DNA of 55,417 bases, taken from assembly GCA_021788105.1 (NCBI GenBank), contig JAJYKZ010000003.1, positions 1 to 55,417 on the forward strand. The letters are read 5' to 3'. The position numbers and the translations under genes were made by a program. The notes beneath the pieces were generated by a model. That model saw only the letters and a program-made list of their open reading frames with translations, was not told the origin of the DNA and made no database searches. How positions within the stretch are numbered: the first letter of the stretch is position 1; each line of letters starts with the position of its first letter. The DNA is from a bacterium. Lineage in GTDB: Bacteria; Patescibacteriota; Minisyncoccia; Moranbacterales; UBA2206. Below, one piece after another: positions 5,287-44,715 of the stretch.

Positions 5287-5295
5287 TGTGGATAA
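5287..5295 (-). promoter_or_regulatory. Perfect DnaA box
   Basis: TGTGGATAA, the reverse complement of TTATCCACA. Confidence 0.5.
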
Positions 5296-42875: not shown

Positions 42876-44126
42876 ATGCCGAATAAAAGCAATCACGATC
42901 CGTTCAGCAACGCGCTTAGACAGCTGGCCAATATAAAAGACATTATCAAGCTTGAAGAAAATATTTATACCCAGCTGCAAGCGCCGCAAAAATTTTTGGA
43001 AGTGAATATTCCGGTCAAGATGGATGACGGGAAAATCAAAATCTTCAAAGGCTATCGTTCGCAATTTAATGACGCGCGCGGTCCGTTCAAGGGCGGCATC
43101 CGTTTTCATCCGGATGTTAACGAATCGGAAGTAAAGGCGCTTTCAGCCTGGATGGCCTGGAAGACGGCCGCGGTCAACATTCCGCTCGGCGGAGCGAAAG
43201 GCGGCGTAATTGTCGATCCGCGGGAGCTTTCCGACCGCGAACTAGAAGAATTATCGCGCGGGTACATGCGCGGAATTTACAAATTGATCGGCTCGGCGGT
43301 GGACGTGCCGGCGCCGGATGTTTACACTGATCCGCGCATTATGGGCTGGATGATGGATGAATACGAAAAACTAACCGGCCAGCATGATCCGGGCGTGATT
43401 ACGGGCAAACCCTTGAGCATCGGCGGATCAGAAGCGCGGTACTATTCAACAGCTCAAGGAGGATTTTATGTTCTGGATGTGGCAGTCAAAAAAATGGGGC
43501 TTTCTAAAAATGCCACCGTGGCTGTTCAAGGTTTTGGCAACGCCGGAGCGCATATGGCGAAAATTTTGCAAAAAGCCGGCTACAAGATTGTGGCGGTGAG
43601 CGATTCCAAGGGCACGATCGCTAATGTGATGGGGATTGACGTTGAAAAATTAGAAGCGCATAAGAAAAAAACCGGTTCCGTGGCCCACTATCCCGGCTGT
43701 GAAGATCTAGGCGCGAAACATTGTTTGGGCCAGGAAGTGGACATTTTGATTCCGGCGGCTCTCGAAAATTCCATCACATCTGAAAATGTCGAAGCGATCA
43801 AGGCGAAATTAATCGTGGAGCTGGCCAATGGGCCGATCACGCCGGAAGCGGATGAAGTTTTAAAAAAGAAAAACATTTTGGTGGTGCCGGATATTTTGGC
43901 CAACGCCGGAGGAGTGACGGTAAGTTATTTCGAGCAGGTTCAAAATGCTTACAGTTATTACTGGACGGAAAAAGAAGTTTTGGAAAAACTTTCCAAGATA
44001 ATGTATGATTCTTTCGAGCAGATTTGGAAAAAGAAAGAAGAATATTTGACCGACATGCGCACCGCCGCTTATATTTTGGCGGTTGAACGCGTAGCGCAGG
44101 CGATGAAAGACAGAGGCCGGGCGTAA
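42876..44126 (+). CDS. gdhA: Glutamate dehydrogenase (Glu/Leu/Phe/Val family)
   Basis: GPFKGGIRFHP, GGAKGG, DVPAPD, ITGKP, QGFGNAG, ELANGP, ANAGGVTVSYFE. Confidence 0.95.
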   Translation: MPNKSNHDPFSNALRQLANIKDIIKLEENIYTQLQAPQKFLEVNIPVKMDDGKIKIFKGYRSQFNDARGPFKGGIRFHPDVNESEVKALSAWMAWKTAAVNIPLGGAKGGVIVDPRELSDRELEELSRGYMRGIYKLIGSAVDVPAPDVYTDPRIMGWMMDEYEKLTGQHDPGVITGKPLSIGGSEARYYSTAQGGFYVLDVAVKKMGLSKNATVAVQGFGNAGAHMAKILQKAGYKIVAVSDSKGTIANVMGIDVEKLEAHKKKTGSVAHYPGCEDLGAKHCLGQEVDILIPAALENSITSENVEAIKAKLIVELANGPITPEADEVLKKKNILVVPDILANAGGVTVSYFEQVQNAYSYYWTEKEVLEKLSKIMYDSFEQIWKKKEEYLTDMRTAAYILAVERVAQAMKDRGRA

Positions 44127-44207: not shown

Positions 44208-44241
44208 TAATCAAAAATGTGCAATCGCACAAATCTGATTA
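44208..44241. repeat. 34 bp palindromic site, copy 1
   Basis: TAATCA-aaaa-TGTGC-AATC-GCACA-aatc-TGATTA. Confidence 0.9.
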
Positions 44242-44331
44242 CATAAAAAAATAAAATATAAATAAACATCCGAGAAAGAAAAAACCATTCTGATTTTTTA
44301 GGGCGGTTTTTTTCTTGTGCATAACTCTTCC

Positions 44332-44362
44332 TTGTCAAGATGCGTTGGGGGGGGGGTATTAT
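44332..44362 (+). promoter_or_regulatory. Promoter with a G10 homopolymer in the spacer (possible phase variation)
   Basis: TTGTCA 44332-44337, 19 nt spacer including G x10 (44347-44356), TATTAT 44357-44362. Confidence 0.65.
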
Positions 44363-44385: not shown

Positions 44386-44715
44386 ATGTCTAAAAAAACA
44401 AAGATCATAATCATTTCTATTGTAAGCGTAATTGTTATCATAGCCGTCGTTTGGGCGATCATTGACGCGAACAAAAGTAAGAAAGCCAACACTTCTCCAA
44501 CTGTCAATACTTCAGAAAACCAAACTCCAAAACCAACACCTTTATCGCAGGAAGAAATCAACCAAGCTCTCAACAAGAAAGCCTCTGCTACCGCTTCTCA
44601 AACTGCCATTAAAGAAAGCGACATTAACACCGCCTTGGCTCAAAAAGCCGTCGCTCCGGCTAAACCATTATCAACCCAAGAAATCCAAACTGCGCTTACC
44701 AAAAAAATTCAATAA
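44386..44715 (+). CDS. Small membrane-anchored protein with three amphipathic repeats
   Basis: N-terminal TM; LSQEEINQALNKK / IKESDINTALAQK / LSTQEIQTALTKK. Confidence 0.8.
   Translation: MSKKTKIIIISIVSVIVIIAVVWAIIDANKSKKANTSPTVNTSENQTPKPTPLSQEEINQALNKKASATASQTAIKESDINTALAQKAVAPAKPLSTQEIQTALTKKIQ

Follow-up and report, generated by a model that had tools for sequence, protein, structure and literature searches.

We describe here a candidate slippage-tuned promoter in a stretch of 55,417 nucleotides (nt), hereafter the window, which is one contig (JAJYKZ010000003.1 of assembly GCA_021788105.1; our contig C40) of a bacterium of the order Moranbacterales, within the Patescibacteria or Candidate Phyla Radiation (CPR). 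At positions 44316-44362, ten consecutive G residues (G10) fill more than half of the spacer between a -35 and a -10 hexamer, a short distance upstream of two genes for predicted exported or anchored proteins. We regard this segment with high confidence as a sigma-70-type promoter, and we consider it very likely that its G run is hypermutable. An effect of run length on expression is predicted and likely, and the complete reading, that is, a promoter of a surface-protein cassette tuned by replication slippage, is put forward with moderate confidence. The mechanism itself is textbook, and what is apparently new is the occurrence of a promoter of the porA/tp0126 type in Patescibacteria. We found no paper that links Patescibacteria or CPR bacteria to phase variation by homopolymers or other simple sequence repeats, and the nearest case in the literature searched is that of a Gracilibacterium with a 9-mer repeated inside a coding sequence (PMC6851277).

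Anatomy of the G10 promoter

The original prediction described a TTGTCA and a TATTAT hexamer 19 nt apart, with G10 between them and a DnaA box with one mismatch just upstream, and a base-level check of the window sequence found every element exactly at the place given (table 1). The 19-nt spacer is made up of 9 mixed bases and the G10, and each hexamer matches its consensus at 5 of 6 positions. The first gene downstream begins with an ATG at 44386, 23 nt past the -10. On the other side lies gdhA (42876-44126), followed by an AT-rich gap of 189 nt that folds with a z-score of -4.75 and whose last 36 nt are a hairpin with a U-run. A generic promoter scanner overlooked this promoter because it accepts only spacers of 16-18 nt.

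Table 1. Coordinates of the features discussed (window positions, except where another contig is named).
Feature	Position	Strand	Remark
DnaA-box-like 9-mer TGTGCATAA	44316-44324	+	differs from TGTGGATAA at one position; separated from the -35 by 7 nt
-35 hexamer TTGTCA	44332-44337	+	TTGCCA in two paralogous copies and in relatives
Heteropolymeric part of the spacer, 9 nt, AGATGCGTT	44338-44346	+	window sequence
G10 homopolymer, adjoining the -10	44347-44356	+	proposed slippage-prone element; G7-G12 in related modules
-10 hexamer TATTAT	44357-44362	+	start site predicted at ~44369
Terminator-like hairpin with U-run, 3' of gdhA	44278-44313	+	from the fold; ends 2 nt before the module
Gene 1, 109 amino acids (aa)	44386-44715	+	Lys-rich N-terminus, one transmembrane (TM) helix, low-complexity repeat tail
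Gene 2, 268-aa exported "fibre-like" protein	44736-45542	+	TM/signal segment, conserved N-domain GW.EP..PP.GN..APINTS, Cys-rich variable C-terminus
34-bp palindrome (TAATCA-N4-TGTGCAATCGCACA-N4-TGATTA), left cassette border	44208-44241	.	five copies in the genome
34-bp palindrome, second copy, right cassette border	45706-45739	.	34 nt upstream of the true dciA start (ATG 45773)
Diversity-generating retroelement regions with long G runs	C2:4443-5515, C16:1812-2802, C6:44543-44664		outside the window

The canonical sigma-70 geometry is valid in this genome, with an optimum of 16-17 nt. When pairs of TTGNCW and TANNWT were tallied by spacer length, intergenic DNA contained 33, 45, 18 and 15 pairs with spacers of 16, 17, 18 and 19 nt, respectively (34, 46, 22 and 43 in the coding control), and only 5-9 pairs at each length of 13-15 and 20-21 nt (25-41 in the control). 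The peak at 16-17 nt is thus confined to intergenic DNA, while the coding counts are flat, at 22-46 over all spacings. Because the intergenic promoters of the genome peak at 16-17 nt, a spacer of 19 nt, as in G10, is predicted to be suboptimal, and G8, with a spacer of 17 nt, to be optimal, in keeping with what had been proposed.

Near-consensus hexamers, a position after a terminator-like hairpin and shortly before a gene, and agreement with the genome-wide geometry all describe a promoter of the sigma-70 type. We consider this identification well supported because the canonical geometry holds in the genome and the module starts right after a terminator-like hairpin, both here and in a paralogous copy on contig C10. 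The claim of a sigma-70-type promoter with a homopolymer inside its spacer is therefore upheld by the anatomy as well as by the geometry: an uninterrupted homopolymer of at least about 7 residues lies between a recognizable -35 and a recognizable -10 here and in two paralogous copies.

An orthologue of the C10 promoter in another genome of the same genus, G001 (L265, G001:C2 ~2313-2380), is informative on the role of the run. It has a box (TGTGGATAAC), a gap of 7 nt, TTGCCA and TATTAT, and its leader and first codons (MKKQK...) are similar to those of the C10 copy. Its spacer is a heteropolymer of 17 nt, GAGCGTGCCAGTTGGAG, which is rich in G and has no G run. Since this orthologue keeps the box, the -35 and the -10 without the run, the latter is apparently dispensable for promoter identity, and an obligatory recognition element is disfavoured. 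The comparison also confirms 17 nt as the apparent native distance for these hexamers. The gene behind the G001 promoter ends after 11 codons (MKKQKQILISS*) and is followed by unrelated, possibly structured sequence.

Three other readings of this region were considered and rejected. A riboswitch or small RNA in the 189-nt gap was dropped, as no Rfam family reached its gathering score there. A minus-strand promoter could use a perfect TTGACA, the reverse complement of TGTCAA, but neither a -10 nor a gene comes after it and the paralogues have TTGGCA at this place. Finally, a start site within the G run, with reiterative transcription, would call for a suitably spaced -10 ahead of the run, and the paralogues show none that is conserved.

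Long G runs in the genome and the three copies of the module

The genome assembly comprises 921 kb in 40 contigs, with 42% GC, and its spectrum of G/C run lengths is bimodal. Runs of 6, 7 and 8 residues occur 31, 3 and 1 times, which is 0.32, 0.15 and 0.23 of the expectation for independent, identically distributed (iid) bases. Runs of at least 9 residues occur six times, against an expectation of 1.15 under the iid model and of ~0.08 when extrapolated from the decay of the genome's own spectrum. The G10 tract is not due to chance, and a spectrum in which lengths of 6-8 are rare and lengths of 9 or more are enriched is as expected where long tracts are avoided except when they are kept.

All six long runs are located 5' of genes. 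Three of them share one module of ~60 nt, found at C40:44316-44362 (G10), C10:27017-27062 (G9) and, on the minus strand, C6:35905-35951 (G9). The consensus of the three copies reads TGTG[C/G]ATAAC, 6-7 nt, TTG[T/C]CA, 9 nt, G9-10 and TATTAT, with a distance of 7-8 nt between the box 9-mer and the -35. Their spacers of 18, 18 and 19 nt are all above the genome's own optimum. The DNA flanking the module is unrelated among the three copies. The gene behind each copy codes for a protein that is exported or membrane-anchored and has a hydrophobic anchor or signal at its N-terminus: it begins about 25-35 nt past the copy, and its product opens with a Lys-rich stretch and a hydrophobic helix. In the C10 copy, a hairpin and a T-run stand immediately before the box, a layout like that of the G10 promoter.

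The other three long runs, of 10-11 residues (C2:5406, C16:2693 and C6:44643), were considered as the same promoter type and rejected. They belong to three diversity-generating retroelements (DGRs), where they occupy the space between the reverse-transcriptase gene and a divergently oriented avd-like gene on the minus strand. In the pairs of template and variable repeats (TR/VR) of these DGRs, the mismatches are specific to adenine (17 of 19 and 18 of 21). A poly-G tract in the gap between avd and the reverse-transcriptase gene could act as a switch on DGR activity.

Recurrence across Patescibacteria

By pattern searching, the module was also detected in two further genera of the family, with G7 in one (G021) and G9 in the other (G035). 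A scan of one genome per prokaryotic species returned 26 loci. Roughly one in two belongs to Patescibacteria (Paceibacterota, Gribaldobacteria, Kerfeldbacteria, Saccharibacteria and Nomurabacteria), a group that contributed very little of the sequence scanned; among the matches outside Patescibacteria, several are coding or chance matches with G6. A scan of metagenomes returned 72 loci. Both scans required TTGYCAA and TATTAT, and after removal of duplicates there remained 71 unique loci with G7 or more. The part of the spacer that is not G is 9 nt long in 38 of the 71 loci; of the 30 loci with a box, 25 have this length. Runs of 7, 8, 9, 10, 11 and 12 residues are found in 20, 14, 20, 13, 3 and 1 loci, respectively. 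Spacer-length variation is thus nearly all within the homopolymer and has the appearance of a footprint of slippage.

Searches with fewer constraints gave a similar picture. When the box and the -35 were sought in all species with no G run specified, 102 matches were obtained, 9 in Patescibacteria and 93 elsewhere, and a run of at least five Gs starting 8-9 nt after the -35 was seen in 6 of the former and in none of the latter. With the -10 left free, the G run always adjoins a TAnnnT hexamer (TATTAT, TACAAT, TAAAAT, TACACT or TAAGAT). A survey of all runs of G9 or more in 61 genomes of the family likewise included some that adjoin TATTAT, TACAAT or TAAAAT after a TTGACA-like -35 (L143, L153, L154).

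Other contexts of long G runs were noticed in related genomes. The DGR context described above, G10 followed by NNTTAAAAGT, is the commonest class of G9 or longer runs in the family, with about 12 of the 30 sampled. Another conserved G9 context belongs neither to the promoter nor to the DGR class and consists of ttgaattttattgtt, ~25 nt, G9 and then ..gattgtcaa (L125, L127 and L146, in G078, G027 and G069).

These distributions bear on the alternative that survives best, namely that the run is hypermutable but no selected switch. It would be an unstable leftover, for example from a G-rich extended -10, and any change in expression would be incidental. The intergenic promoter set of this genome favours T at -15 and G at -14, which could seed the growth of a run beside the -10; the G001 orthologue has a spacer that is rich in G yet heteropolymeric; and ORFans, for which variation would have no evident use, are numerous among the downstream genes. 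However, a mere leftover agrees poorly with the strong depletion of runs of 6-8 and with the restriction of runs of at least 9 to two specific regulatory contexts. The module with a long run is moreover kept in Saccharibacteria, Paceibacterota, Nomurabacteria, Gribaldobacteria and Moranbacteria. Among the promoters found by box and -35, a small set of 9 Patescibacteria loci, those of the housekeeping genes mraZ and hup have no G run and that of rpsF has only G5, and small ORFans or a pilin-like gene stand behind the promoters that have long runs. On balance, we consider an unselected run rather unlikely and favour a slippage-tuned promoter.

Type IV pilin genes appear twice more among the loci examined. 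Nine Gribaldobacteria-type metagenome loci (L010, L021, L045, L050, L051, L077, L079, L094 and L100) have the promoter, with G7 or G9, in front of such a gene (MNKSFTLLELL...), and an identical segment from the -35 to the leader occurs at three different chromosomal sites, which is to say that promoter and leader were copied as a unit. In a relative, at L148 (G009:C1, ~544452), the codons for the signal peptide of a type IV pilin (MKKMLSTRGGFTLIELL) contain a G9, which is a candidate site of translational phase variation.

Variation of run length and mismatch repair

Variation in run length was assessed in relatives that carry the module, by comparing 17 contig groups, each sharing one locus (23 pairs in all). 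Over all pairs, the flanks show 27 differences in ~71,000 sites. Four near-identical groups differ solely in the length of the G run. L010 (G7) and L079 (G9) have 0 mismatches in 3,276 nt, L036 (G7) and L096 (G9) have 2 in ~3 kb, and L046 (G9) has 1 in ~3 kb to L068, L078 and L080 (G10). The fourth group, L037 (G7) and L090 (G10), comes from a single metagenome, Ga0182027, and in both contigs the locus is at the contig end. Two more diverged pairs are also unequal (G10 and G9, G11 and G10). A change of tract length against constant flanks is thus seen for the same promoter type in other Patescibacteria contigs. At the window locus itself, no other public assembly was found to encode exactly the same GdhA or 109-aa protein.

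MutS_V and MutL_C domains, and with them mutS and mutL, were not detected in this genome, which is 94% complete; the same searches matched 11 of 14 control genomes. Given that neither domain could be detected, a high rate of slippage is likely by analogy.

The same data speak against a fixed cis-element, that is, a run of constant functional length that is read by a regulator, by a sigma region or as DNA shape, with no dial involved. Such an element would account for the fact that the run always adjoins the -10 and that it is conserved, together with a very similar box and -35, across distant lineages. It would not explain why the run spans 7-12 residues and the remaining spacer keeps a length of 9 nt, why length differs between otherwise identical contigs, or why the orthologous promoter of G001 has no run. 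We judge this possibility improbable.

The view that the run arose as an artefact of sequencing or assembly, for instance from spurious poly-G reads or the collapse of a repeat, deserves very little credence: two-colour Illumina chemistry does yield poly-G artefacts, and contig C6 ends 11 nt past another G/C run of 11, but the tract studied here is internal to a 55-kb contig and its conserved module recurs, with three copies in this genome and others in dozens of independent assemblies.

Based on these observations, the following sequence of events may be proposed. The G10 promoter would drive an accessory operon of two genes, one for a 109-aa anchored protein and one for a 268-aa exported fibre-like protein. 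Frequent slippage is expected in G10 because no mismatch repair is detectable, and replication should then add or remove G residues at high frequency. Each step would shift the distance between -35 and -10 by 1 bp, to 17 nt with G8, 18 nt with G9 and 19 nt with G10. A population should in this way hold heritable and reversible variants that differ in transcription of the operon, G8 being predicted as the strongest state and G10 as a weak one. Slippage at this particular locus, its effect on transcription and any benefit to the cell are inferred.

Several observations weigh against a slippage-tuned promoter of surface-protein genes. To begin with, 10 groups of near-identical contigs with runs of G7 or more had equal run lengths, and one further group of equal length carries only G6. 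Where lengths do differ between assemblies, homopolymer errors of sequencing or assembly could be partly responsible; mis-calls could explain differences of one base, and are unlikely for those of two or three. In 18 cases, where 6.2 would be expected, a contig ends no more than 150 nt from a tract, which fits true heterogeneity and technical trouble alike. Since poly-G tracts break assemblies and can be mis-called, run lengths in metagenome-assembled genomes need caution. The conservation of the hexamers within the species and metagenome scans is circular, since the search pattern fixed them. The commonest spacer across loci is 18-19 nt rather than 17 nt, so that either low states predominate or G-rich spacers have a longer optimum than assumed. 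Lastly, roughly one in two downstream genes at other loci is an ORFan with a small, charged product that is not secreted, and for this reason surface variation does not serve as a general rationale for the module.

The DnaA-box-like element

The box of the module belongs to a larger population of sites. The perfect 9-mer, TGTGGATAA, has 33 copies in the genome, 21 of them intergenic, in a genome in which only 9% of the sequence is outside long open reading frames (ORFs); five control words with one mismatch are intergenic only 0-3 times each. Many of the perfect copies lie 6-8 nt upstream of a -35. The window contains three box sites, at 5287, 39719 (minus strand) and 44316. Among the unique poly-G promoters of the scans, 30 of 71 have a box within 30 nt upstream of the -35, in either orientation, as opposed to none of 348 control windows. 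Judging by this recurrence, the box truly belongs to the module and is also a common element close to promoters in this lineage, with DnaA binding as a putative function.

The one-mismatch DnaA box of the original prediction is thus real as a sequence, and it does not stand as a feature of a replication origin. An origin made of a DnaA box and an adjacent unwinding or structural element could draw on the fact that TGTGCATAA differs from the box consensus at a single position. Nevertheless, there is a single box with one mismatch here and no oriC-type cluster; the 33 sites of the perfect 9-mer are dispersed, and most of them are followed by a -35 hexamer after 6-8 nt; further promoters with this module have the box at a similar place, in either orientation; and neither a switch of GC skew nor a cluster of boxes was seen in the sequence around the site. 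We regard an origin as most improbable.

The downstream genes and their accessory cassette

The two genes behind the G10 promoter are separated by 20 nt. Neither was assigned to a known family or matched a solved structure: the 109-aa product of gene 1 has no family above the cut-off in Pfam, NCBIfam or PHROGs, and the 268-aa product of gene 2 has no match in Pfam, NCBIfam or PHROGs and no sequence match in the PDB. Homologues of gene 2 occur in 16 of 41 relatives, at 1-3 per genome; they are alike in a conserved head and diverge in their tails, and the match covers only residues 1 to ~75-150, with the TM segment and the GW.EP..PP.GN..APINTS motif. A paralogue in the same genome (C31:12519-11755, minus strand) is 83% identical over residues 1-77 and unrelated beyond.

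Both products are predicted to be exported or anchored. The claim that the downstream genes encode exported proteins is supported by the TM/signal segments at both N-termini and by the conserved N-terminus and variable C-termini of the gene 2 family. These TM/signal segments, the variable C-termini and the absence of the cassette from G001 are what surface or contingency genes would present. The label "fibre" and a role in attachment are conjecture. A specific tie between the poly-G promoter and the fibre family was rejected, as only one relative (G021) has the promoter before a fibre-family homologue. By eye, the 109-aa protein contains three loose (S/T)xEIxxALxKK repeats, and "EIDxALKEFE" starts akin to these repeats can be seen in ORFs behind the poly-G promoters of the metagenome contigs L055, L071, L093 and L101.

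In G001, gdhA is directly followed by dciA, and the 1.5-kb cassette and both palindromes that border it are absent. As this genome of the same genus lacks everything between gdhA and dciA, the predicted two-gene operon is to all appearance an accessory, lineage-specific cassette. The remaining three copies of the palindrome are on contig C14 (200-233, 907-940 and 981-1014), around a 206-aa PaaX/Cas2-like gene (C14:253-873, minus strand). The palindrome may be an operator of this PaaX/Cas2-like regulator or a recombination site.

Significance and comparison with known systems

CPR bacteria do not grow on their own and probably spend their life attached to host cells. To our knowledge, almost nothing is known about gene regulation in this group. 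If these minimal genomes, with no mismatch repair detectable in the present one, retain a few long G runs precisely in promoters of accessory exported proteins and beside their DGRs, they would have the bet-hedging device of host-associated pathogens such as Neisseria, Treponema and Campylobacter. It would also give a concrete handle on how episymbionts vary their surface, and would point to genes that matter for host contact. Far more tentatively, Patescibacteria may use a portable composite contingency promoter (box, -35, fixed 9 nt, G7-12 and -10) that varies accessory surface or pilin-like proteins and ORFans in genomes without detectable mismatch repair. As a related poly-G element lies between avd and the reverse-transcriptase gene of their DGRs, the machineries of display and of diversification would then both be under the control of slippage, with a possible link through DnaA to replication status.

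The box invites a comparison with promoters regulated by DnaA, such as those of dnaA and nrdAB in Escherichia coli and of dnaA and sda in Bacillus subtilis. The likeness lies in a DnaA-box 9-mer beside a promoter and outside an origin. In the present case, however, the box has one mismatch, is placed at about -50 and belongs to a portable module, and DnaA binding is putative.

With regard to the genome as a whole, a close parallel is Campylobacter jejuni, which has a small genome without MutS/MutL function and in which G/C runs of at least 8-9 residues are few, non-random and hypervariable. For this species, 29 such loci have been listed (PMC4965091). Its tracts are mostly in reading frames and act at translation, in contrast to the six long tracts described here, all of which are upstream of genes.

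Promoter-spacer homopolymers that independently govern several surface-protein genes, as is proposed here, are found in two further bacteria. In the vlp genes of Mycoplasma hyorhinis a poly-A tract lies in the promoter spacer, and in fim2 and fim3 of Bordetella pertussis a poly-C tract lies between an activator site and the -10. Both cases concern another nucleotide and another lineage than ours. In fim2 and fim3, the tract also sets the distance from the activator site to the -10; the DnaA-box-like element here is a candidate activator site only.

The nearest relatives of the G10 promoter in terms of design are porA and tp0126, in which a poly-G tract between -35 and -10 sets promoter strength by an established mechanism (PMC7864442). 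The porA spacer of N. meningitidis contains ~9-11 G residues, slippage changes the spacing by 1 bp and the optimum is 17 nt (summarised in PMC7864442). Both there and here, a G homopolymer is placed within the sigma-70 spacer of a surface-protein gene. The G10 promoter differs in that its run directly adjoins the -10 and follows a fixed segment of 9 nt, and in the additional DnaA-box-like element upstream. Its carrier is an uncultured CPR bacterium without detectable MutS/MutL, and switching is here only predicted.

Treponema pallidum offers a likeness of a further kind, as it is an unculturable bacterium with a small genome in which several genes, paralogous or unrelated (tp0126 and tprE/G/J/L), have promoter tracts of G7-G11. 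Transcription of tp0126 is best at a spacing of 17 nt, and in tprL G8 is permissive whereas G10 is not (PMC7864442). Variation within isolates and effects on reporters were measured in T. pallidum, whereas the variation reported here is between assemblies of relatives. The module of Patescibacteria, for its part, is common to a whole phylum-level radiation.

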